13,986 bases of DNA from a virus (taxonomy: Duplodnaviria; Heunggongvirae; Uroviricota; Caudoviricetes). Location: the IMG/VR virus record IMGVR_UViG_2609459823_000005; one strand, 5' to 3'. The notes beneath the pieces are model-generated. The model did no database searches. It was not told where the DNA came from and saw nothing but the letters and a program-made list of their open reading frames with translations. Below are positions 733 to 13,986 of the stretch, in pieces (the stretch's first letter is position 1; each line of letters starts with the position of its first letter). The position numbers were made by a program, and so were the translations under genes.

Positions 733-780
733 TGTCCGCTATTGCCAGTACACCTCATAATGAGGTCGAATTACTGCGCA
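1..780 (+). mobile_element. IS3-family insertion sequence, right-hand portion; right terminal inverted repeat not precisely located (somewhere in ~733-800)
   Basis: The transposase orfB ends at 732 and IS3-family elements usually carry a few tens of bp after orfB ending in ...CA (a CA occurs at 779-780). The boundary is an estimate because the left end is outside the window and no IR comparison is possible. Confidence 0.5.
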
Positions 781-1064
781 TTGAATTTTTTTCATAAAAA
801 AAGCATATATCCATTTGATTTGGCATTTGTTTTTTTCGTGTTTCTTATGAGTCATTTTCGCGTTTTTTTTTGAAACGGCTCAATAATGCCAAATCAACGT
901 ATAAGAAATAAACGGAACAGAACGCCTCACTTTAATGGTTTGAGATTTTTCTTGTTTCCGTATTGGTTTAAGCAGAAAATGTGTTTCTTAACATTTAGTG
1001 CTTGGTAATGATTCTCAGTTGCACTACCGAGTGCCCTATTAATGAAATCGTTGGACGTTACGCA

Positions 1065-1103
1065 CAGCACACTGGTAGCTAATGAGCCAGGGGCGGTAGC
1101 GTG
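1065..1103 (+). promoter_or_regulatory. JUMPStart 39-bp element containing the ops site (GGCGGTAGCGTG at 1092-1103); RfaH-dependent antitermination signal
   Basis: The sequence cagcacactggtagctaatgagccaggggcggtagcgtg matches the conserved JUMPStart element found upstream of enterobacterial polysaccharide operons, and its 3' end matches the ops consensus GGCGGTAGnnTG exactly. It sits about 90 bp upstream of the rmlB start. Confidence 0.85.
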
Positions 1104-1192
1104 CCTTGTTTTTGAATCAATGCCCTGGCTTGAATTTTGCATGTCGGTGCCACAGTAACAACTCGCAAACGCAAAGTAGATGGAATAAACTC

Positions 1193-2281
1193 GTGAAAAT
1201 ATTGGTCACAGGTGGGGCAGGTTTTATTGGATCTGCTGTCGTCCGTAATATCATTAAGAATACTCAGGATTCTGTAGTTAATGTTGATAAATTAACCTAT
1301 GCGGGCAATCTTGAATCGCTGGTTGAAATCGAAAACAGCGCCCGTTATGCTTTTGAATGTGCAGACATTTGTGATGCTGAGGCGATGTCGCGTATTTTCG
1401 CCACTCACCAGCCTGATGCTGTTATGCATCTGGCTGCAGAAAGCCATGTAGATCGCTCGATCACCGGCCCTGCTGCTTTTATTGAGACAAATATCGTGGG
1501 CACCTATGTGCTGCTTGAAGCCGCACGTAAATACTGGTCTCAACTTGATGAAACAAGTAAAGCCGCGTTCCGCTTTCATCATATTTCAACGGACGAAGTC
1601 TACGGCGATTTGCCGCATCCTGATGAAGTCCCCGCTGGCACCGCCTTGCCGCTGTTTACCGAGAAAACCCCTTATTCTCCCAGCAGTCCGTATTCCTCAT
1701 CGAAAGCGTCAAGTGACCATTTAGTACGTGCATGGCGCCGTACTTACGGCTTGCCGACCCTGGTGACGAATTGCTCAAATAACTATGGCCCATACCATTT
1801 CCCTGAAAAACTTATTCCGCTGATCATTCTTAATGCATTAGCTGGTAAGCCGTTACCGGTGTATGGCAATGGCGAGCAAATTCGCGACTGGCTATTTGTT
1901 GAAGATCATGCACGCGCCTTATATAAGGTCGTCACTGAGGGGGTTGCGGGTGAGACTTACAATATCGGTGGTCACAATGAGCGTAAGAATATTGAAGTCG
2001 TAAATACTATTTGTACTATTCTGGACGAAATCATTACTGCGAAACCTAATAATATTAGTAGCTTTGCAGAATTAATTACTTATGTCACCGACCGTCCGGG
2101 CCATGATCTGCGTTACGCCATTGATGCGAGCAAAATAAAAGATGAACTGGGCTGGGTACCGCAGGAGACTTTTGAATCAGGTATCCGCAAAACGGTTGAA
2201 TGGTATTTGACTAACCAGGACTGGTGGCAGCGTGTGATGGATGGATCATATGCTGGTGAACGCCTGGGGCTCGCAGAATAA
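1193..2281 (+). CDS. rmlB: dTDP-glucose 4,6-dehydratase
   Basis: Preferred start is the in-frame GTG at 1193, giving [14 protein letters not shown] (Rossmann GxxGxxG) and a length of ~362 aa. The catalytic YSSSK (YxxxK) and other blocks ([21 protein letters not shown]) closely resemble E. coli RfbB as recalled. The track's ATG at 1106 is rejected because that extension overlaps JUMPStart/ops. Confidence 0.92.
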
Positions 2282-2296
2282 AATCGTAAGGACGGA

Positions 2297-3172
2297 ATGA
2301 TGAAAGGTATTGTATTAGCTGGCGGTTCTGGAACTCGTCTTTATCCGATTACTCAGGGTGTGTCAAAACAGTTATTGCCTGTTTATGACAAGCCGATGGT
2401 TTTTTACCCAATATCAGTTCTAATGTTGGCAGGTATTCGTGACATTTTGATTATCACGACGCCGGAAGATATGGCCGCGTTTCAACGCCTGTTGGGAGAC
2501 GGCTCTCAATTTGGTATTCGCCTTTCCTATACTGTCCAACCTTCGCCGGACGGTTTAGCGCAGGCATTTATTCTGGGTGAAGAGTTCATTAATAATGAAC
2601 CTTGTGCTCTGGTGCTGGGCGACAATATCTATTTTGGTCAGAGTTTTGGTAAAAAACTCGAGGTTGCCTCTCAGTTGACCCAAGGTGCGATGGTATTCGG
2701 TTATAAAGTACAGGATCCTGAGCGTTTTGGTGTGGTTGAATTTGATGCGAACTACAAGGCATTGTCCATTGAAGAAAAACCACAGAAGCCAAAATCCAGT
2801 TGGGCAGTAACCGGTCTCTATTTTTACGACAAAAACGTTGTGGAAATGGCGAAGCAAGTCAAACCATCTGCTCGCGGTGAACTCGAAATTACGACACTTA
2901 ACCAAATGTATCTTGAACGCGGTGAGCTTCAGGTAGAGTTGCTCGGACGTGGTTTCGCATGGCTTGACACCGGCACACATGACAGTCTGGTTGAGGCTTC
3001 ACAGTTTATTCATACCATTGAAAAAAGGCAGGGTATGAAAGTCGCTTGCCTTGAAGAGATTGCGTTTCGCAATGGATGGATCGGCAGAGAACAACTTTTA
3101 GCGCAGGCAAAACTGTTCAGCAAAAATGATTATGGTAAGTATCTAAAAGTATTGGCTGGAGAACATGAATGA
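2297..3172 (+). CDS. rmlA: glucose-1-phosphate thymidylyltransferase
   Basis: The N-terminus [16 protein letters not shown](x)[13 protein letters not shown] is the nucleotidyltransferase signature, and the ~290-aa protein closely resembles E. coli RfbA. There are tandem ATGs at 2297 and 2300; the RBS aaggacgg (2288-2295) favours 2300. The stop overlaps the rmlC start (ATGA at 3169-3172). Confidence 0.92.
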
Positions 3173-3705
3173 ACGTCATTGACACTAAAATAAGCGATGT
3201 GAAGATTATTGAGCCAAAAGTCTTTGGTGATGAACGAGGGTTCTTTTTAGAAACATTTGAAAAAAAGAGATATCAAACCCTTTTGAATATCGATATGGAT
3301 TTTGTACAGGATAACCACTCACGTTCCAGCAAAGGCGTACTTCGTGGGCTTCACTTTCAGCGCAATAATCCTCAGGGGAAACTTGTTCGAGTAGTTCGTG
3401 GCGAAGTGTTTGATGTTGCTGTTGATATTCGTAAAGACTCACCAACCTATGGGGTGTGGGAAGGTGTAATTTTGTCAGAAACGAATAAAAAGCAATTCTG
3501 GATCCCACCGGGACTTGCTCATGGTTTCCTGGTACTCTCGGATATTGCTGATTTCGAATATAAATGTACCGACTATTATGATAGCAGTAGTGAAGGCTGT
3601 TTAATCTGGAATGATGAGCAAGTTGGGATTGCATGGCCAGTAATAGACGCTGAGATTAAACTTTCAGCAAAAGATGCTGTTGGTAAGTTACTGCGTGACC
3701 TATAA
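3169..3705 (+). CDS. rmlC: dTDP-4-dehydrorhamnose 3,5-epimerase family protein (RmlC-like cupin)
   Basis: The 178-aa protein has [11 protein letters not shown], the catalytic His in VLRGLHFQ, the GKLVR lysine, [10 protein letters not shown] and a Tyr in FEYK, which is the RmlC fold signature. Whether it performs a full 3,5-epimerisation or a single epimerisation cannot be told from sequence. Confidence 0.8.
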
Positions 3706-3716
3706 GTTTTACTAAC

Positions 3717-3746
3717 AGGCGTAGATATTTTCTACGCCTATTTTTT
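3717..3746 (+). terminator. Intrinsic-terminator-like hairpin between rmlC and wzm
   Basis: A perfect 9-bp stem aggcgtaga (3717-3725) / tctacgcct (3731-3739) with a 5-nt loop is followed by a T-run at 3741-3746. A TATAAT hexamer at 3754-3759 lies just before the wzm start. Confidence 0.55.
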
Positions 3747-3760
3747 GAGGCGCTATAATA

Positions 3761-4540
3761 GTGTTTAATAGTTTCATTCAAGGCCTGATAAATTATCGTG
3801 TTGTACTAAAACAATTAATAAGACAACAAGTAACGCTCAGGTATCGCAGAACAATGTTCGGTTTTTTATGGACCCTGCTTAATCCTCTTCTGAATATGGC
3901 AGTAATAGCGACTGTCTTTTCAATCGTAATGAAATTTCAGATAAGAGACTACGCCATTTTTCTCTTCTCTGCAGTTATTCCTTGGACTATGTTTTCAAAT
4001 ATCATTTCACAATGTTCTAATTCATTGATAGCAAATGAAAATCTATTTAAAAAAATATACTTACCAAAACAGATATTTATAACCGCTAGCGCAGTATCTG
4101 TTTTTATTGATTCGCTTCTGAGTACTATCTGTTTATTCATCATTGCATATTTCTTTGGCGCAAAATTAAGTTTGGCATTGATGTTTCTTCCAGTTTCATT
4201 TGCGATCTTATTTATATTCGCTTATGGTTTGGGTCTGATTTTTTCTGTAGTTTCTGTTTTTTTGCGCGACATGCAGTATCTGATCGGTGTGATTTTGCAA
4301 GCTCTATATTTTATGACCCCTATCATATATCCCGTTGATGCTGTTCCGGAACAGTACAAATGGGTTTTTGCATGGAATCCTATGTACTATTTTGTTGATT
4401 TATTTAGGGATCCAATCTACAACAATCAATTCCCTCCAGCTTATTCATTACAGCTTTGTGCGCTGACTGCCATTATTTCACTTTTGGTTGGTTTGTATGT
4501 ATTTAAAGTAAATGACAAAAAAATTATCTTCAGGTTGTAG
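3761..4540 (+). CDS. wzm: O-antigen/polysaccharide ABC transporter permease (ABC-2 family)
   Basis: The N-terminal motif LRYRRTMFGFLWTLLNPLL is typical of Wzm/KpsM, and the rest of the 259-aa protein is strongly hydrophobic with multiple predicted TM segments. Start is assigned to GTG 3761 with GAGG at 3747-3750; the ATG at 3854 would remove the conserved motif. The 3' end overlaps the wzt reading frame. Confidence 0.82.
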   Translation: MFNSFIQGLINYRVVLKQLIRQQVTLRYRRTMFGFLWTLLNPLLNMAVIATVFSIVMKFQIRDYAIFLFSAVIPWTMFSNIISQCSNSLIANENLFKKIYLPKQIFITASAVSVFIDSLLSTICLFIIAYFFGAKLSLALMFLPVSFAILFIFAYGLGLIFSVVSVFLRDMQYLIGVILQALYFMTPIIYPVDAVPEQYKWVFAWNPMYYFVDLFRDPIYNNQFPPAYSLQLCALTAIISLLVGLYVFKVNDKKIIFRL

Positions 4541-4541
4541 T

Positions 4542-5291
4542 ATGGAATCTAAAATTATTTTTAAAAATGTCTCTCTCGTATTTGATGAACATCAGCAACG
4601 AGGTCTGACGTTCAAAGAGTTATTTGCACGCACTCTCTCCGGTCGGAATAACGCTATAAAGGCGAATAAGAGAAAAGCTTTGGATTCAATAAGTATCGAG
4701 ATAAACCATGGAGAGCGAATCGGTATTGTCGGAAGCAATGGGGCAGGGAAAAGTACGTTCCTAAAAACACTTTGTCGTATTTATGAGCCAACCTCTGGTG
4801 AAATAAGCATATCAGGTAATATTGCACCGTTACTTGAGATTGGGGCTGGATTTAATCCAGAACTAAGCGGAAGAGAAAATATATATTTGAATGGTGCAAT
4901 TCTGGGCCATAGTATTTCTGAGCTTAAAAGTTTGGAAGCAGAAATTATTTCATTTTCAGAATTAAGTGAATATATTGATACACCTGTCAAATATTATTCA
5001 ACGGGCATGTATCTTAAATTAGCATTTTCAATTGCGACGGCAATCAAGCCTGATATTTTAGTTTTAGATGAACTGTTTGCTGGCGGTGACGCGGAATTTG
5101 TTGCTAAAGCTAAAAAAAGAATGGAACATTTCATCGCGGAATCAAGCATTATGTTTTTTGTATCTCATCAATTAGATTTGCTGCAGGAATTATGTACCCG
5201 CGTAATATGGATCGACCATGGTAAATTAATTGCTGATGGTGTACCAGACAAGGTAATTGAAGCATATTTGAATAAAGGTCATCATGATTAA
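4542..5291 (+). CDS. wzt: O-antigen/polysaccharide ABC transporter ATP-binding protein, short form without a C-terminal carbohydrate-binding domain
   Basis: Walker A GIVGSNGAGKST, ABC signature YSTGMYLKL, Walker B ILVLDELFAGGD and an H-loop (FFVSHQ) are all present. The track ORF begins at ATG 4512, but ATG 4542 (MESKIIFKNVSL) immediately follows the wzm stop and gives a typical N-terminus. At ~250 aa the protein is a nucleotide-binding domain only. Confidence 0.85.
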   Translation: MESKIIFKNVSLVFDEHQQRGLTFKELFARTLSGRNNAIKANKRKALDSISIEINHGERIGIVGSNGAGKSTFLKTLCRIYEPTSGEISISGNIAPLLEIGAGFNPELSGRENIYLNGAILGHSISELKSLEAEIISFSELSEYIDTPVKYYSTGMYLKLAFSIATAIKPDILVLDELFAGGDAEFVAKAKKRMEHFIAESSIMFFVSHQLDLLQELCTRVIWIDHGKLIADGVPDKVIEAYLNKGHHD

Positions 5292-6045
5292 TATTATAAT
5301 AGTCAGCCATCAAAATTTAGCTGACATTGATAAAATTCTCACAGAACTTGCGGGTGAAAATGATTATTATACTATTTATGTTCGTGACAATGTTGCTGAT
5401 GAGAATTTGAAGCGCCTTTGTTCTGATTATAACGTCTCATATTGTTCTGGTATTCGCCGAGAAGGCTTTGCCCTTAATAATAATATTGCTGCCGAAAAAG
5501 TATTACACTCATGTGAAATAGCTGATGATGATTATTTCCTGTTTATGAATCCTGATGCATATATTATTCGCGACGAGCTGATCAAACTCTCAACTATTTT
5601 GAGCGAAAAAAAATACGATATGTTCACTGTTGATCTGTATAGTAATGATGAATATACAATAAGAGATCCTTCCATTCGATATTTTCCAACGCTAAAAACA
5701 TTTCTATCTTCTTTTTTATTTGATACTAACAAAAGTATTATTAACAGGGATGCCATTCATCAAGATTTCGACCTGGATTGGTGTGCTAGCTCATTCTTTG
5801 GCGTTAAAGTTGGTTTGTTTAAAAGACTTAATGGCTTTGATTCCCGATTCTTTATGTATTGTGAAGATGTGGATATCTGTTACAGGGCTAAAAAATTAGG
5901 AGCCAAGCTTAGTTATATTGCAAATGTAAAAGCAATACACTACACTCAGAAAAATAGTAAAAAGATGCTCACTAAAAATTTTTATTGGCACGTTAAAAGT
6001 GCCATATTGTTTTTATGGAAAAAGCATACCCTGTCAAAAGGTTAA
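5284..6045 (+). CDS. GT2-family glycosyltransferase, WbbL-like dTDP-rhamnosyltransferase (candidate Rha to GlcNAc-PP-undecaprenol adaptor transferase)
   Basis: The 253-aa protein shares blocks with the E. coli WbbL rhamnosyltransferase as recalled from memory: IIIVSH, VRDN, DDDYFLFMNPDAY, DWCASSF, NGFD, FFMYCEDVDICYR, AIHY and WHVKS. The start overlaps the wzt stop by 8 bp. Confidence 0.6.
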   Translation: MINIIIVSHQNLADIDKILTELAGENDYYTIYVRDNVADENLKRLCSDYNVSYCSGIRREGFALNNNIAAEKVLHSCEIADDDYFLFMNPDAYIIRDELIKLSTILSEKKYDMFTVDLYSNDEYTIRDPSIRYFPTLKTFLSSFLFDTNKSIINRDAIHQDFDLDWCASSFFGVKVGLFKRLNGFDSRFFMYCEDVDICYRAKKLGAKLSYIANVKAIHYTQKNSKKMLTKNFYWHVKSAILFLWKKHTLSKG

Positions 6046-6050
6046 GATAA

Positions 6051-6944
6051 ATGTATTCTGTTGTGATGGGATTCCGCGAAAACTATAAACATTATGGGTA
6101 CACTACTCTTTTTTCTTTATTAACAAATAATAAAAACTCTTTTTTTTCAATCTATCTCCTTTCAGATAATCTGGATTTTGCATTTTTTAAAAAACTGGAG
6201 GATGTTTTTGCTTGCAAAATCATCCCTATTTCTATTTCGGCTGATCATATTGAAAATGTAAATTGTGGCTATCTTTCCTTTGGGACACTAATCCGCTTAT
6301 TAATCGGTGATTATCTTCCTGCTAATGTCGAAAAGGTTCTATACCTTGATGCTGATTTGATAATTGATGGCGATATTCATGAACTTCTTAATTATGAGTT
6401 AGGTTCACAGTATGCGGCAGTCGTAAGATCGAGTGCTCCTTATAAGCATCTCAAGGACATTAGGATAACATCCGAGCAGTACTTTAATGCGGGGGTGATA
6501 CTTTTTAATATGGAGATGTGTAGAAAAGATGATATTTTCATAAAAAGCCTTGATTTGTTAAAACGGAATAATTTTAAATATTTAGATCAAGATGCACTTA
6601 ATATTGCAATGGTAAACAATGTAAAATATGTTGATTCTAAATGGAATTTCGACTCATTTAGAGCAAAAACAATCTTACTTGATAGGAGTTATGCAAATAA
6701 ATACCCTGCAATAGCAATTTATCATTTTACAGGGCGTGACAAACCATGGTTTAAACATTGCATCAACCAGTATCAGAGTATTTATCTTCGTTATTTCGCT
6801 GAAATTCTAGGCTATGATGTTATCAATAATAAAAATAAATTTCAGTATTTTAAATTTAAACTGATTAAATTCTTATTCAGTAACTTTGTAACCCGTAAAA
6901 TTATTTACCATTTAAGAAACTATATTCGGACTAATATTCACTAA
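6051..6944 (+). CDS. GT8-family retaining glycosyltransferase (RfaJ/RfaI/LgtC-like; alpha-hexosyltransferase)
   Basis: GT8 hallmarks are present: the DxD motif in LYLDADLIIDGD, FNAGVILFN, YLDQDALN and the C-terminal HFTGRDKPW (H-x-x-G-x-x-KPW). Length is 297 aa and the donor sugar cannot be assigned from sequence. Confidence 0.75.
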   Translation: MYSVVMGFRENYKHYGYTTLFSLLTNNKNSFFSIYLLSDNLDFAFFKKLEDVFACKIIPISISADHIENVNCGYLSFGTLIRLLIGDYLPANVEKVLYLDADLIIDGDIHELLNYELGSQYAAVVRSSAPYKHLKDIRITSEQYFNAGVILFNMEMCRKDDIFIKSLDLLKRNNFKYLDQDALNIAMVNNVKYVDSKWNFDSFRAKTILLDRSYANKYPAIAIYHFTGRDKPWFKHCINQYQSIYLRYFAEILGYDVINNKNKFQYFKFKLIKFLFSNFVTRKIIYHLRNYIRTNIH

Positions 6945-6953
6945 GGACATTTT

Positions 6954-8333
6954 GTGGAGACTATACAAATAGCCACTGGAGTAAGTCGTAACTTCTTTGA
7001 CCCATTGAGTGTCATGCTTACTTCCTTGCTTGAAAATAATCAATCACATAAAATCAATTTTCATGTTTTGCACAGTGATTTTACGGATGATGATGAAGAA
7101 AAATTTAGCCTTTTGTTTACTAAATATGAAAACCTGGGGCTTAAATTCATCAAGTTAGATGAATCTAAATTAGAAGGGCTTCCCCTTCTGCAACATTTCA
7201 AGATCTCAACGTATTTTCGAATTCTGGCGCCAGCTGTTTTAAGTGAATATGATAAACTCCTTTATCTCGATGCCGACATTATTGTTGACAATGATATTCT
7301 GGAATTATGGCAGACCGATGTCACCAACTATACCCTCGCAGCAGTTCGTGAAGAGAGTATTGTCGCGTTAGATAAACGTTTGAGAATGCCTGCCAATTAT
7401 AAGTATTTCAATGCTGGTGTTGTTGTATTAAATAGTAAAAAAATTCGAGAAGAAAATAAGTTCGGTCCTGTTATCGATTATCTAAAAGAAAATATCAATG
7501 AGATCCTTTATCTTGATCAGGATGCTTTAAATGCTATTCTCTACGATGAATGGTTAGAAATAGACGAGAAATGGAATTATCATAATACCTTTATCCTGAA
7601 AAAAAATAATAACAAAGAGCATATCTTATTAGATAAACCAGTTATTATTCATTATACTGGTCCAGTCAAACCATGGGATGCGGAAAGTTCACATATATTT
7701 AAAAGCCGCTATTGGCATTACAAGAAAATATTAACAGGGAGTGTCGATGAAATTAAAGCTGGTTTTAACATACATAGTACGCTTGCTAAAAGAATAATAA
7801 AATATGCATATAGAGTTATTCTTTCCAATTATTATTTAAGAAAGCTGATTCTTAAAACAAATACATCATTAAAGCAGAGTGAGCATTTTGCGAAATATTA
7901 TTTTAAGTTTAAGGAACGTTTTGCTCCTGCACCTCAGATAATGTCGTCATTCGAAGCGAAGTTAGTTCAAGTTGATGTACCACTTCTAGAATCAACCATG
8001 GATTATGGTTTTTTCAGTATAAGGGAGTTCTTGAACTATATACAAATTTCTGGATATGTTTTCAAAAAAGAGTTTTCTGATAGAAATACTAATAAATATT
8101 TTGTCTTGAGAAACAGTGTCGACCCTAATTTGCTATATTGTTTTAAACTTAACAGTCATGACCATGTTTGGATTAATGATATATATAATGATGGTAATGA
8201 CTATTCAAAAAGTGGGTTCTTTAATTTCATCGGCAAAAGAGAGCTTAAAAGTGGAAGGTATGAAGTTGGATTAATCGTCCAAAATTCAAAAGGTGTACAT
8301 TATAAAATGACTGACACTACAGTAATTATTTGA
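6954..8333 (+). CDS. GT8-family glycosyltransferase with an extra ~190-aa C-terminal extension (two-domain protein)
   Basis: The N-terminal ~260 aa carry the GT8 motifs LYLDADIIVDND, FNAGVVVLN, YLDQDALN and HYTGPVKPW. The C-terminal portion has no GT8 similarity and contains a block (ISGYVF ... LKSGRYEV) that is also seen in the next protein. Start is GTG 6954 with RBS AAGGA at 6943-6947. Confidence 0.75.
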   Translation: METIQIATGVSRNFFDPLSVMLTSLLENNQSHKINFHVLHSDFTDDDEEKFSLLFTKYENLGLKFIKLDESKLEGLPLLQHFKISTYFRILAPAVLSEYDKLLYLDADIIVDNDILELWQTDVTNYTLAAVREESIVALDKRLRMPANYKYFNAGVVVLNSKKIREENKFGPVIDYLKENINEILYLDQDALNAILYDEWLEIDEKWNYHNTFILKKNNNKEHILLDKPVIIHYTGPVKPWDAESSHIFKSRYWHYKKILTGSVDEIKAGFNIHSTLAKRIIKYAYRVILSNYYLRKLILKTNTSLKQSEHFAKYYFKFKERFAPAPQIMSSFEAKLVQVDVPLLESTMDYGFFSIREFLNYIQISGYVFKKEFSDRNTNKYFVLRNSVDPNLLYCFKLNSHDHVWINDIYNDGNDYSKSGFFNFIGKRELKSGRYEVGLIVQNSKGVHYKMTDTTVII

Positions 8334-8343
8334 CGAGGAATCC

Positions 8344-9564
8344 ATGGATATTAAAATTTATTCGTCTTTTTATAAAAAATACTTCATTTATAAAAGCGAC
8401 ATTGTAGAACCTGTTTTTGTTGGTGCGGCCGAAAAGAATAATGATTTAGGCATCATTGGTGATGATACTGGCGATAATATTAGCGATAAAAACGGCACGT
8501 TCAATGAATTAACTTTAATTTATTGGGTCTGGAAAAATACTACAAATCAAGATTATGTAGGCTTCTGTCATTATAGAAGATATTTTATAAATAGAAGCAT
8601 CAGTAAATTTGAAAAAGCATTGCATCTTCTGATTCCACGCGATAAAGAGCGTAGAGAGCGTAAATTATTACGTTTGTTACAGCAGTTTGATAAAAATTGT
8701 GAATCCGAATTGAAAGGATTTGATATAGCGTTACCTAAGCCTATTGTTATGAATCGTACTTTGCGTGAACAATATGCTGATTATCATGATGGCGCGCATT
8801 ATGAGGAAATGGGTAAGGTTATTCGAGAATTACGTCCTGACATGTGGCCTGCTTACGAAGATGCGTCAAATCGAAATACTTTCTTCATCGCTAATATGTT
8901 CATTTTTAGCCGCAAGTATTTTGATCAATTTTGCGAGTTTGCCTTTCCGGTTCTTTTTGAACTAGAGAAAAGGTTAGAAGTGCCGGATGATATGTATCAA
9001 AAACGTATTTTTGGATACTTAGGTGAGCGGTTGGTAACAATCTTTGTAAATTATTTATATCAACAAAAGAATGTTAAATTCAAATATTTTGATCTATTAA
9101 ATACTGATGTTATTTTTTCAAATTACAAATCGTATCTAACCGAAAAAAAATTAATAAGCAGTAAAAATAAAAACTACGTCACTTTTGGTGCTGTTGATAA
9201 TCTAATCAAAATGTCAAACAATTTTTACTGCATGAATGGTTGGGTTATAATTAAAGATCGCGAATCCTATAATGTTACGGTTCAAATTGAGTTATATAGT
9301 GATGAAAACACTATTATGCTTAATAGCGAAAGACAGGATCGGCCTGATGTAACCCGGCACTTTATCAATGTTCATGATGGGTACGTTAATTACGATAATT
9401 GCGGCTATTACACTAGTTTTAAATGTGATGAGATTAAAAGTGGTGAATATAAAATTAAGTTTCATGCATTTGATAAAATAGAGAAAACAACTTCAATTTT
9501 TTATGTTTATGACTGTTTTTTAAAGAAACATAAAAATGAAGTTGAGCTTGTGAGGTTACCATGA
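8344..9564 (+). CDS. DUF4422-type putative glycosyltransferase (WbbI/WbbM-N-like, candidate galactofuranosyltransferase) with a C-terminal extension
   Basis: The motifs ELTLIYWVWKN, VGFCHYRRYF and GYLGERLVTIF match my recollection of the DUF4422 family, which includes known Galf-transferases; this is not verified by a profile search. The C-terminal ~110 aa (NGWVI ... IKSGEYKI) resemble the C-terminus of the preceding protein. RBS GAGGA at 8335-8339; the stop overlaps the glf start (ATGA). Confidence 0.6.
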   Translation: MDIKIYSSFYKKYFIYKSDIVEPVFVGAAEKNNDLGIIGDDTGDNISDKNGTFNELTLIYWVWKNTTNQDYVGFCHYRRYFINRSISKFEKALHLLIPRDKERRERKLLRLLQQFDKNCESELKGFDIALPKPIVMNRTLREQYADYHDGAHYEEMGKVIRELRPDMWPAYEDASNRNTFFIANMFIFSRKYFDQFCEFAFPVLFELEKRLEVPDDMYQKRIFGYLGERLVTIFVNYLYQQKNVKFKYFDLLNTDVIFSNYKSYLTEKKLISSKNKNYVTFGAVDNLIKMSNNFYCMNGWVIIKDRESYNVTVQIELYSDENTIMLNSERQDRPDVTRHFINVHDGYVNYDNCGYYTSFKCDEIKSGEYKIKFHAFDKIEKTTSIFYVYDCFLKKHKNEVELVRLP

Positions 9565-10730
9565 TTAGTTATGATTACATTATTGTAGGCTGCGGTCTTT
9601 CTGGTATTGTTCTGGCAAATAATATTGCTGAGAAATTAAATAAAAAAGTGCTTATTATTGAGAAGCGCGATCATATCGGAGGAAACTGTTACGATTACTA
9701 TGATGAACATGGTGTCCTTGTACATAAATATGGTCCGCATATTTTCCATACAAATTATAAAGATGTCTATGACTACCTTGATCAATTCACTGAATGGTAT
9801 GTTTATCAGTTCCAGGCACGAACACTGATTGATGGTAAAAAAACATTTTTGCCCTTCAACCTGAACACGATGAAGGATATTCTTGACGAGCATTTATATG
9901 ACAAGATATCTAAAAAACTCATCGAAGTTTATGGTTATGATAAAACCGTACCTATTTTCGAGTTAAAAAAATCAGAGGATGAAACCATCCAATGGTTGGT
10001 TGACTATATTTACGATAAAGTCTATGTGAACTATATCGCTAAACAATGGGACATGAAACCCGAAGACCTCGACAAGAGTGTGCTTGAACGTGTTCCCGTA
10101 TATATTTCTCGCGATAATCGATATTTCAAAGACAAATATCAAGTTATGCCACGAGACGGTTATACGGTTATGTTCAACCGGATGTTGGCAAACAAAAACA
10201 TACATGTTCTGTTGAATGCTAATGCAGACGATTTTGTCACGCTGACCGATAAGCATGAAGTTCACTTCATGGGCAAGCCATTTGAAGGCAAGTTGATTTA
10301 CACCGGTCAGATTGATCATCTTTTCAATTATAAATTTGGCGAGTTACCTTATCGTTCCTTGCGCTTTGATTTTGTTAATTACAAAAAAGAGTTCTTCCAG
10401 GAAGTGGCTATGGTTAGCTACCCAAATAATTATGATTTCACTCGTATTACGGAAAGTAAGCATTTGACCGGGCAGGATTGCAAAACGACCACTGTTGTTT
10501 ATGAATATCCCCAGAATTATGATCGTAATGATCCTATCAAAGATGTACCTTATTATCCTGTGCCAAGAGCCGATAACCATGAACTTTATGCAAAATATTC
10601 AGAGCTTGCTGGTAAGTATAAATCTTTGATACTGGTTGGTCGTTTAGCTCAATACAAGTACTACAACATGGATCAGATGATCAAAGTTGCCCTTGATACA
10701 TTTAAAGAAATTCAAGCTGGAGAAAAGTAA
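9561..10730 (+). CDS. glf: UDP-galactopyranose mutase family flavoprotein (NDP-hexopyranose mutase)
   Basis: The N-terminal FAD-binding YDYIIVGCGLSGIVLAN ... KKVLIIEKRDHIGGNCY and HKYGPHIFHTN closely parallel E. coli K-12 Glf as recalled, with conserved blocks throughout the 389 aa. A dTDP-fucopyranose mutase (Fcf2-like) cannot be excluded from sequence alone. Confidence 0.85.
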   Translation: MISYDYIIVGCGLSGIVLANNIAEKLNKKVLIIEKRDHIGGNCYDYYDEHGVLVHKYGPHIFHTNYKDVYDYLDQFTEWYVYQFQARTLIDGKKTFLPFNLNTMKDILDEHLYDKISKKLIEVYGYDKTVPIFELKKSEDETIQWLVDYIYDKVYVNYIAKQWDMKPEDLDKSVLERVPVYISRDNRYFKDKYQVMPRDGYTVMFNRMLANKNIHVLLNANADDFVTLTDKHEVHFMGKPFEGKLIYTGQIDHLFNYKFGELPYRSLRFDFVNYKKEFFQEVAMVSYPNNYDFTRITESKHLTGQDCKTTTVVYEYPQNYDRNDPIKDVPYYPVPRADNHELYAKYSELAGKYKSLILVGRLAQYKYYNMDQMIKVALDTFKEIQAGEK

Positions 10731-11662
10731 TGAAGACTATTTTAATTGTTGGTGGTTCTGGCTTCATGGGTGCGAATTTTACTGAATACTTTGTTGCGAA
10801 AGGCTACAAGGTTATTAGCTTCAGTAATTCACCAACCCGTATCCAGCATGAAAATGTGGTAAATGTTTGCGGTGATAGCCGTGATGCCGAAGCTATTAAT
10901 GAAATTTTTGTTAATCACAAAATTGATTTGGTTGTTTTTACGTTGACGAGTTTTTGGGTGGTTGATGGGGTGAGCTCCTATCAAGATTTGACCGCCATTA
11001 ACCTGACTGCGTTTATCGATGTACTGAATATCATGAAGCGTCACAATGTTAATGAAGTGATTTACATCTCTTCTGGTGGCTCTATCTATGGAGAGTCCGA
11101 TAAGCCGATTCCGGAAGATTCACCGCTCTGCCCGGTCAGTTTTTATGGCTGGATCAAAGAAGCGGCAGAAAGCTATCTTAAATATGAAGCCCGTATTAAT
11201 CCCCATTTGCGCTATCTTGTATTTCGTCCTTCCAATGTTTACGGAAAATATCAGCAGCTCAACCGCATCATTGGTGTAGCGCTTAAAAATACACATTTGG
11301 ACATCCCAATGAATATTTATGGTGGTGCGGATACGAAGAAAGACTATATTTATATCGATGATTTCTGTGAGATCATCTTTAATATCTTGAATAAAAATGT
11401 CTGGAACGAAACGTACAATATTGGTTCTGGTGTCGGAACCAGCATTCGAGAAATTCTGGATCTTGCTCAGGAAGTTGTGAATAAGCCACTTGCTGTTGAG
11501 TATGGAAAACAGAAAGAGGGTGATATCAGTTATAGCGTATTAGATGTTGAGAAAGTTAAGGCTGTAACTGGTAAGCAAAGCTTCACCAACGTCAAAGACG
11601 GCATGCGTAAAATGTATCCGTACGTTGTCGAAGAACTGGCACGTCTGGCAGCGAAGGCCTAA
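10730..11662 (+). CDS. NAD(P)-dependent epimerase/dehydratase (extended SDR) family protein; candidate nucleotide-sugar 4-reductase or 4-epimerase
   Basis: Rossmann motif IVGGSGFMGANF at the N-terminus and catalytic YGWIK (YxxxK) preceded by ISSGGS. Length is 310 aa and the start overlaps the glf stop (TAATG). Precise activity is not assignable by eye. Confidence 0.7.
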   Translation: MKTILIVGGSGFMGANFTEYFVAKGYKVISFSNSPTRIQHENVVNVCGDSRDAEAINEIFVNHKIDLVVFTLTSFWVVDGVSSYQDLTAINLTAFIDVLNIMKRHNVNEVIYISSGGSIYGESDKPIPEDSPLCPVSFYGWIKEAAESYLKYEARINPHLRYLVFRPSNVYGKYQQLNRIIGVALKNTHLDIPMNIYGGADTKKDYIYIDDFCEIIFNILNKNVWNETYNIGSGVGTSIREILDLAQEVVNKPLAVEYGKQKEGDISYSVLDVEKVKAVTGKQSFTNVKDGMRKMYPYVVEELARLAAKA

Positions 11663-11862
11663 TAGCTTATCCTGCTTCTTGAGCAAGAGATGATTGTAAT
11701 GGTTTTGTTAACACTTTTTTGCTCAATAGTGGGCTAGTCCTTTAAAACTTTTTTAGGTTAACATGTTAGTCACGTATCCCGACGGCGAATGCGGCGTCGG
11801 GAATCCACACCTGACAGGAGTTTTGCATGCCTAAGCAACAAATCGGCGTTGTTGCTTAGGCC

Positions 11863-13233
11863 GTGATGGGGCGCAACCTGGCGCTTAACATCGAAAGCCG
11901 TGGCTATACCGTTTCCGTTTTCAACCGCTCCCGCGATAAGACCGAAGAAGTGATTGCCGAGAACCCCGGCAAGAAGCTGGTTCCGTATTATACCGTGAAA
12001 GAGTTTGTTGAATCCTTAGAAACTCCCCGTCGCATCCTGTTAATGGTGAAAGCGGGCGCTGGCACAGATGCTGCTATTGACTCCCTGAAACCCTATCTGG
12101 AAAAAGGCGACATCATTATTGATGGCGGTAACACCTTCTTCCAGGACACCATTCGTCGTAACCGCGAACTGTCTGCTGAGGGCTTTAACTTTATCGGTAC
12201 CGGTGTGTCCGGTGGTGAAGAGGGCGCACTGAAAGGCCCATCCATCATGCCTGGCGGTCAGAAGGATGCCTATGAACTGGTCGCACCGATCCTGACCAAA
12301 ATTGCAGCCGTTGCCGAAGATGGCGAGCCCTGTGTGACCTATATCGGTGCTGACGGTGCGGGCCATTACGTTAAAATGGTTCACAACGGTATCGAATATG
12401 GCGACATGCAGTTGATTTCAGAAGCCTACTCTCTGCTGAAAGGCGGTCTTAACCTGTCTAACGAAGAGCTGGCCACCACTTTTAGCGAGTGGAATAAAGG
12501 CGAGCTGAGCAGCTACCTGATCGACATTACCAAGGACATCTTCACTAAAAAAGATGAAGAGGGTAACTATCTGGTCGATGTGATTCTCGATGAAGCGGCC
12601 AACAAAGGTACGGGTAAATGGACCAGCCAAAGCTCGCTGGATCTCGGCGAACCGCTCTCCCTGATCACCGAATCCGTATTCGCACGCTATATCTCGTCGC
12701 TGAAAGAGCAGCGCGTTGCCGCATCTAAAGTTCTGAGCGGTCCGCAGGCCCAGCCTGCTGGCGATAAAGTGCAGTTTATCGAGAAAGTCCGTCGCGCATT
12801 GTATCTCGGTAAAATCGTCTCTTATGCCCAGGGTTTCTCTCAGTTGCGTGCTGCGTCTGACGAATACAACTGGGATCTGAACTATGGCGAAATCGCGAAA
12901 ATTTTCCGCGCTGGCTGCATCATTCGTGCACAGTTCCTGCAGAAAATTACCGATGCATACGCTGAAACACCGGCAATTGCTAACCTGCTGTTGGCACCTT
13001 ACTTTAAGAAAATTGCCGATGAGTATCAGCAGGCTTTGCGTGATGTTGTAGCCTATGCCGTACAAAATGGTATTCCGGTACCGACTTTTGCCGCTGCGGT
13101 TGCCTATTACGATAGCTACCGTGCTGCGGTACTGCCGGCAAACCTGATTCAGGCTCAGCGTGATTACTTTGGCGCACATACTTATAAACGTACTGATAAA
13201 GAAGGTGTATTCCATACGGAATGGCTGGATTAA
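11863..13233 (+). CDS. gnd: 6-phosphogluconate dehydrogenase (decarboxylating), N-terminal region disrupted
   Basis: The 456-aa ORF matches E. coli Gnd over essentially its whole length ([17 protein letters not shown] ... GVFHTEWLD). The conventional start is ATG 11827, preceded by RBS AGGAG (11816-11820), and would encode MPKQQIGVVA before an in-frame TAG at 11857-11859. The intact ORF therefore restarts only at GTG 11863 / ATG 11866 and lacks the first strand of the NADP-binding fold. Confidence 0.8.
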
Positions 13234-13264
13234 TCTGATATTGTACGTTTTGTCGAATAAATAT

Positions 13265-13288
13265 CCTCCGGCATAGCCGGAGGTTTTT
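13265..13288 (+). terminator. Rho-independent terminator downstream of gnd
   Basis: An 8-bp GC-rich stem cctccggc (13265-13272) / gccggagg (13276-13283) with loop ata is followed by TTTTT at 13284-13288, about 30 bp after the gnd stop. Confidence 0.7.
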
Positions 13289-13364
13289 CAAATGCGCCTA
13301 TAAGGCTCTCTTACCAGCCGCGCCCTAACAGGCGCACACGATCTGACATTTGCATCCAACTTCG

Positions 13365-13745
13365 TTACTTACGGCCCGTAAACGGGCTGCCCGGATAGGG
13401 AATCGATAACTGCTCTCCCATTTTATCCTCTTCAAGCTGGTGCTTTATGTAATCCTGTATCTTCGCCGTGTTCTTACCCATCGTATCGACGTAATACCCT
13501 CTGCACCAGAACTCCCTGTTCCTGTATTTGAATTTCAAATCACCAAACTGCTCGTAAAGCATCAGACTGCTTTTCCCTTTCAGATATCCCATAAAGCCTG
13601 ATACGCTCATTTTGGGCGGGATCTCCACAAGCATATGGATATGATCTGCACAGCATTCAGCTTCCAGAATCCGTACACTTTTCCACTCACACAGCTTTCT
13701 CAAAATACTGCCTGTTGCTCTACGCTTCTCTCTGTAGAACACCTG
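13365..13745 (-). pseudogene. tnpA: IS200/IS605-family (IS200-like) transposase tnpA, 5'-truncated by IS1 insertion
   Basis: The minus-strand ORF encodes FYREKRRATGSILRKLCEWKSVRILEAECCADHIHMLVEIPPK ... YPGSPFTGRK, which matches IS200 TnpA as recalled, including the HuH motif (HIHML). About 27 N-terminal codons are missing; the match stops at 13745, where IS1 sequence begins. Confidence 0.85.
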
Positions 13746-13986
13746 GGTAATGACTCCAACTTATTGATAGTGTTTTATGTTCAGATAATGCCCGATGACT
13801 TTGTCATGCAGCTCCACCGATTTTGAGAACGACAGCGACTTCCGTCCCAGCCGTGCCAGGTGCTGCCTCAGATTCAGGTTATGCCGCTCAATTCGCTGCG
13901 TATATCGCTTGCTGATTACGTGCAGCTTTCCCTTCAGGCGGGATTCATACAGCGGCCAGCCATCCGTCATCCATATCACCACGTCA
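13746..13986 (-). mobile_element. IS1 insertion sequence, terminal ~240 bp (one end at 13746; the rest lies beyond the window)
   Basis: From 13746 the sequence reads GGTAATGACTCCAACTTATTGATAGTGTTTTATGTTCAGATAATGCCCGATGAC..., the canonical IS1 terminal sequence as recalled, and it contains the 3' end of insB on the minus strand. Confidence 0.9.
13761..13986 (-). CDS. insB: IS1 transposase InsB, C-terminal part (partial; the 5' end is beyond the window)
   Basis: The minus-strand translation [72 protein letters not shown] matches the IS1 InsB C-terminus as recalled. The ORF is open to the window end. Confidence 0.85.

Follow-up and report, generated by a model that had tools for sequence, protein, structure and literature searches.

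An IS200C remnant joined to an IS1 end downstream of gnd in an rfb–gnd module

Genes and mobile elements in the window

The window, that is, the whole 13,986-nucleotide stretch of DNA that was analysed, carries an rfb–gnd module at 772–13255, comprising rmlB, rmlA, rmlC, wzm, wzt, genes for a GT2 protein, two GT8 proteins and a DUF4422 protein, a glf-like mutase gene, a gene for a 310-aa epimerase/reductase, and gnd; rmlD is absent from it. An ops-containing JUMPstart element (Rfam RF01707, 59 bits) was found at 1065–1103, ahead of rmlB, indicating that the module carries its own RfaH-type antitermination signal. The left border is formed by the 3′ part of an IS600 element of the IS3 family on the plus strand (1–770, with the end at about 767–771), which was 99.4% identical to annotated IS600 copies and matched NF033516 at positions 146–369 of 369. 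The first-pass annotation, made from the sequence alone, had noted an IS3-family element upstream and a locus bracketed by mobile DNA; the element proved to be IS600, and the description as bracketed holds and was even understated. Sister contigs diverged from each other in or just upstream of the partial IS600 (L017/L020 at window position 521; L018 versus L021 some 344 bp before the window begins), and L023 is without 340 bp that are present in L018, so that the left edge is a mosaic of IS fragments.

At the right end of the module, gnd (11827–13233, plus strand) is a passenger pseudogene, in which codon 10 (GCT) is followed by TAG at codon 11 (11857–11859), and the reading frame ends with TAA at 13231–13233. 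Its identity to E. coli gnd is only about 87%. The gene is intact (468 aa) in the sister contig L003, while the same pseudogene allele as in the window was found in L004, L005, L009, L013, and L017. Relative to the intact L003 allele, three clustered substitutions (11855, 11857, and 11858) changed GTTGGTATGG to GTTGCTTAGG, and the mutated sequence GTTGCTTAGG forms an inverted repeat, perfect over 10 bp, with CCTAAGCAAC at 11830–11839; the change bears the signature of a quasi-palindrome template-switch mutation.

A 22-bp spacer (13234–13255, plus strand), which is donor DNA that formerly led to the native gnd terminator, separates the gnd stop codon (13231–13233) from the right end of a remnant of IS200C (13256–13745, minus strand). 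The ends of IS200C were established from six independent copies with different flanks, namely, those of L003, L013, CFT073, MS 69-1, GF60, and SCU-109, and the EC5 copy was used in addition, though just to define the right end. This comparison gave an element of 713 bp in the tnpA orientation, running from TTGTGCACAG... to ...GGATATTTATT, and placed its right end in the window at 13256 (AATAAATATCC...), about 35 bp nearer gnd than the boundary near 13290 that had been assigned at first. The remnant thus represents the 3′ 490 bp of the element (coordinates 224–713 of 713, the 3′ 69%). In nucleotide alignments, 13244–13745 was 98.6% identical to the IS200C annotated between thrL and thrA in E. 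coli CFT073, and 489 of the 490 remnant bases matched the intact IS200C at the same site in L003, with 1 mismatch. The window copy shares with E. coli IS200C copies such as that of CFT073 the right end, its hairpin, and TnpA residues 27–152 (98.6–99.8% nucleotide identity over 490 bp), but differs from them in that coordinates 1–223 are replaced by IS1 at the junction.

Within the remnant, the truncated Y1 (HUH) transposase gene tnpA′ (13365–13745, minus strand) comprises codons 27–152 and the stop codon. Its own start is missing, the mechanical start of the open reading frame being a GTG at 13742; no internal stop occurs in 13365–13745, and the break in TnpA falls precisely between codons 26 and 27. 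The translation carries the HIHML (HUH) motif and the C-terminal Tyr region, and matched both NF033573 (positions 26–126 of 126, 103 bits against a cut-off of 55) and PF01797 (93.9 bits against a cut-off of 23), with only the N-terminal 20–25 profile positions absent. Compared with the intact 152-aa TnpA of L003, it shows one substitution, V115M. These alignments and profile matches agree with the initial reading of a minus-strand IS200-family tnpA that is open from its stop codon at 13365 up to 13745, specify the element as IS200C, and establish that the segment is IS200-derived.

The remnant is without the left end (LE) and its hairpins, the promoter, the ribosome-binding region, and TnpA codons 1–26. 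The left end of IS200C and its hairpin are absent from the window and were seen only in the intact sister copies of L003 and L013. Elements of the IS200/IS605 family have no terminal inverted repeats and transpose by a single-strand peel-and-paste mechanism, which requires a Y1 HUH transposase and the hairpins of both the left and right ends. As the parts listed above are gone, and excision needs both ends, the remnant is to all appearances inert, a fixed fossil that should be capable neither of supplying an active Y1 transposase nor of being excised. Searched against Rfam, the region downstream of gnd matched no RNA family.

The last 241 bp of the window (13746–13986, minus strand) are the IRR-proximal part of an IS1 that runs off the window end. 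The 23-bp right terminal inverted repeat (IRR; 13746–13768, minus strand; GGTAATGACTCCAACTTATTGAT as read on the plus strand) sits directly on the IS200 break (13745/13746) and is identical to the ends of the IS1 copies of L008 and L002, which are complete at 768 bp and to which the entire 241 bp was 100% identical. The minus strand of 13761–13982 encodes the 73-aa C-terminus of InsB (PF03400 positions 59–131 of 131, 133.7 bits). IS1 produces InsA and, via a −1 frameshift, the InsAB′ transposase, and its target duplication is usually 9 bp (8–14 bp). In comparison with a complete IS1 (IS1A/IS1B-type, 768 bp), the IRR and the next 218 bp were 100% identical to copies annotated as IS1A family, whereas insA, the frameshift site, IRL, and the target duplication lie outside the window, which holds 241 bp only. 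In the sister contig L014, the IS1 extends to 510 bp with 1 mismatch and a 164-aa product. IS1 and tnpA have the same orientation, and the right end of IS1 points at the IS200 remnant. The earlier observation of a minus-strand IS200-family element cut at 13745 by a canonical IS1 end was thereby borne out, the matches to both elements being well above chance; the IS1 sequence is not a short fragment without a terminal repeat, as the IRR is present and at least 510 bp of the element follow in a sister contig.

IS1-free relatives and a second IS1 event at gnd

An empty-site comparison with relatives, which had been suggested in the first-pass annotation, was run, and two sister contigs, L003 and L013, were found to keep IS200 whole after the same gnd and to carry no IS1. 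L003 combines the intact gnd with an intact IS200 encoding the 152-aa TnpA, and L013 combines the gnd stop mutation of the window with an uninterrupted IS200. Over about 13 kb, L013 differed from the window by 2 SNPs and one N, being its closest IS1-free relative, and L003 by 10 substitutions and one indel. The most parsimonious order of events is the insertion of IS200, followed by the inactivation of gnd and then by the IS1 event. The intact IS200C at this site in L003 is flanked by GTTTTGTCG and TAAGGCCCGG, without a direct repeat, that is, without a target-site duplication; such a duplication is likewise absent in five other IS200C copies.

Downstream of the intact elements, L003 carries IS1414 and a resolvase gene, and L013 carries IS3/IS66 fragments and a TOTE helicase gene; ugd was found in neither. 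The latter gene (L013 15405–17765, minus strand), located beyond IS200, encodes a 786-aa AEP-primase/DEAD-helicase that is annotated at the source as a TOTE conflict-system protein, and in L039 the TOTE primase-helicase sits in an island with a P4-type integrase, AlpA, and DUF3987. When L003 12527–13300 was compared with L013 11390–12160, the gnd-side flank of IS200 was common to both and the DNA past the left end was different. Nearly all differences between the two IS200 copies themselves fall in the ~220 bp next to the left end, the first difference lying about 22 bp past the IS1 insertion point. This pattern suggests that different copies of IS200 have recombined at this border.

A second IS1 was found close by in another lineage of the module. 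In L008, a complete 768-bp IS1 (3867–4634) adjoins gnd at window position 12994 by the same end and in the same orientation, and the contigs L009 and L010 end at window positions 12989–12990. The far flank of the L008 IS1 is a chromosomal region with TPR, integrase, dsbD, cutA, dcuA, and aspA genes, 99.5% identical to E. coli chromosomes, and no target duplication is present; some of the matching E. coli chromosomes have an IS1 at this far-flank site. The join in L008 reflects either integration of the module by way of IS1 or a path that the assembler took through this element. The lineage of L008, L009, and L010 carries ancestral alleles at 4964, 9534, and 12831, three positions at which the derived alleles are common to the window and the IS1-free L013, indicating that the two IS1 events are independent. 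A derivation of the IS1 at 12994 in L008, L009, and L010 from the IS1 of the window by adjacent deletion was considered as well and was rejected on this allele pattern. Two independent IS1 events within 750 bp mean that the module border keeps being reshaped.

Origin of the junction and nature of the module

The region downstream of gnd is very probably a two-step insertion-sequence scar that marks the right border of a horizontally acquired rfb–gnd module. According to the comparison with the sister contigs, the 713-bp IS200C inserted 22 bp past the gnd stop codon with tnpA on the minus strand. In the second step, whose junction is seen in the window, an intact IS1 IRR became joined to IS200 coordinate 224; by the proposed mechanism, the left end of IS200 would thereby have been separated or removed together with the promoter, the ribosome-binding site, and the first 26 tnpA codons. 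Because an intact IS1 terminal repeat meets an internal position of IS200, the junction was made by IS1 transposase chemistry and not by that of IS200.

The window behaves as essentially a whole short-read contig that ends inside the multicopy IS1; its positions 1866–13986 were 100% identical to the compared stretch of L015, which comes from a 14,014-bp contig (GCA_000714015.1). A contig end of this kind is where an assembly chimera at a repeat boundary might be suspected, but such an origin of the junction is extremely improbable, since the same junction recurred on 18 of the 18 contigs read that carry the truncated 125-aa TnpA product, from different isolates and human gut metagenomes and from different assemblers. 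On each contig listed, the truncated product adjoins the same gnd, and the junction-bearing contigs extend 27–510 bp into IS1, every one stopping in or at it. An exact scan of representative genomes gave 0 matches to the IS200/IS1 junction, and metagenome scans gave 0 matches to the observed junction and 0 to the predicted second one (IS1 IRL, 0–14 nt, and the IS200 continuation). Look-ups by the epimerase, truncated Gnd, and truncated TnpA products returned short-read contigs only, none crossing IS1; on the far side, the contigs found through the TOTE primase-helicase located past IS200 in L013 end within IS66 fragments and do not reach IS200. How IS1 came to its position can be explained in two ways. 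We slightly favor a simple insertion of IS1, in which about 9 bp (GAACACCTG) would have been duplicated and the 5′ 223 bp of IS200 would lie beyond IS1, and for which the far junction would be predicted to read ...CAGCATCACC, GAACACCTG, and TCTTCGGTATTTTGGCGC in succession. The description of IS1 as nested inside IS200 would hold for this course of events, the part of IS200 seen in the window being its 3′ half alone. In the other, which is plausible while falling somewhat short of probable, the junction would mark the end-point of a rearrangement mediated by IS1, such as an adjacent deletion, an inversion, the resolution of a cointegrate, or recombination between two IS1 copies, and unrelated DNA instead of the IS200 5′ 223 bp would lie beyond IS1.

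A precedent for such a rearrangement is found in E. coli EC5 (NZ_CP060969.1; L002), where the same two elements stand in the same relative orientation next to hypT/pgaA, with the IRR facing the 3′ part of IS200. The EC5 case differs from the window in being an independent, chromosomal event, with the break at IS200 coordinate 94 and not 224; the far flank of its 768-bp IS1 is pgaA-side DNA, and the left end of IS200 is absent beyond IS1, which demonstrates that an IS1-associated loss of the IS200 left end does occur. The IS1 that abuts gnd in L008, with the same IRR end and orientation, a chromosomal far flank, and no target duplication, also speaks for rearrangement, although this join could be an assembler path through the repeat. 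Further, the same junction-bearing module was found behind two upstream contexts (L020 and L021), indicating that the region is clearly being rearranged. Against these observations, IS200 is complete at this site in the closest IS1-free relative, L013, which means that one event suffices, and the commonest outcome of IS1 transposition is simple insertion. IS1 would supply the module border with a transposase-active end and with portable homology, through which deletions, cointegrates, and recombination could follow.

The surroundings of the module were also compared among the sister contigs. Upstream of the module, L017 and L020 carry an IncF/IncI-like plasmid backbone (parA, impCAB/umuDC, dinI, and psiB) with 98.7% identity to Shigella and E. 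coli plasmids, L021 carries other plasmid-like DNA, and L018, L019, and L022 carry island genes (yfjJ-like, alpA, and a group II intron reverse transcriptase). In both L004/L020 and L005/L021 the IS200 is truncated by IS1, and their upstream contexts are different. The module was recorded in several hundred blocks of a collection of draft assemblies and metagenomes, its proteins being annotated as E. coli in many drafts, while it was found in 0 of 5,426 complete E. coli genomes and in none of the PLSDB plasmids. The first-pass annotation had described an O-antigen locus in which nested insertion sequences replace the expected gnd–ugd junction, a framing that implies the chromosomal locus. The gene order of JUMPstart, rfb genes, and gnd does resemble that of a chromosomal O locus, but the absence of the cluster from all 5,426 complete genomes, the ~87% identity of its gnd to that of E. 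coli, IS600 in place of galF upstream, plasmid or island genes as neighbours in the sister contigs, with ugd following in none, and a glf-like protein with more than 90% identity to Citrobacter (Citrobacter braakii) proteins render that framing very unlikely. The locus is not a galF–gnd–ugd locus, and no gnd–ugd junction is to be expected in a module that sits in plasmid-like or island contexts and never before ugd; this part of the initial description was accordingly dropped.

The mobility of the module between contexts is what the sister-contig comparison shows. A far-reaching and, as a whole, rather doubtful proposal is that the scar marks the right-hand edge of an O-polysaccharide module that is transferable, bounded by insertion sequences, and as yet undescribed; apparently of Citrobacter-like origin, it would have moved in E. 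coli between two plasmid-like contexts and a chromosomal-island context with IS600, IS200, and IS1 at its borders. A protein-based locus search, for which the epimerase gene adjoining gnd served as query, returned only an unrelated match at 25% identity, and in a full-text literature search no description of the module and no match to the assembly accessions were found. The virulence plasmid of S. sonnei reportedly carries the form I cluster, an IS-flanked O-antigen cluster outside the chromosomal locus. The Salmonella O:54 cluster is plasmid-encoded (cited in PMC7685785). Similar to these two systems, the module is a foreign O-polysaccharide cluster on mobile DNA with IS borders; in contrast to them, it is of the ABC-transporter type (wzm/wzt, two GT8 genes, DUF4422, and glf-like), has a co-transferred gnd, and is located in E. 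coli. If the proposal were true, the module could provide its host with an additional O antigen or with one that replaces the existing type, and it might even be one of the E. coli O-antigen loci (O20, O57, and O60) that, according to a review of E. coli O antigens, have not been found at galF–gnd (PMC7685785).

IS200C and IS1 are known textbook elements, and the scar itself is ordinary mobile DNA, whose main use is to mark a lineage and to account for the ends of short-read contigs at this point. The mobile and apparently undescribed ABC-transporter rfb–gnd module in E. coli, which came to light as a by-product, is of more interest than the scar. In the window as now read, the hairpin after gnd is that of IS200, gnd is a passenger pseudogene, and what was called the O-antigen locus belongs to the accessory DNA, as a module carried in plasmid-like or island sequence. 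Such a second, foreign rfb–gnd copy could mislead in-silico serotyping and gnd-based typing.

Hairpins at the ends of IS200C

A terminator scan detected a hairpin shortly after gnd, at 13265–13283 (CCTCCGGCATAGCCGGAGG), with an 8-bp stem containing 7 G–C pairs, a 3-nt loop, and a predicted centroid energy of −15.5 kcal/mol. It is followed by TTTTT on the plus strand and by ATATTTATT on the minus strand. Since the true end of IS200 is at 13256, the hairpin belongs to IS200 and not to gnd, representing the right-end subterminal hairpin of the element, and it was kept in every IS200C copy compared. Judged by consensus match and folding energy, this hairpin and its U-run now probably terminate transcripts that read through from gnd and the rfb genes. 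In L003, the left end of the intact IS200 directly adjoins the hairpin GGCCCGGTTACTGTAACCGGGC with T7 after it, which looks like the native terminator of gnd, indicating that the insertion of IS200 took place between gnd and this hairpin.

A G+C-rich hairpin abutted the left end of IS200C (...TGCACAA on the window plus strand) in 6 of 6 copies (L001, L003, L013, L026, L027, and L028), and an A-run preceded this flanking hairpin in 5 of 6 independent copies. The left-flank hairpins resemble intrinsic terminators, among them the thrL attenuator, the gnd terminator, and others, which suggests that IS200C inserts right after terminator hairpins.
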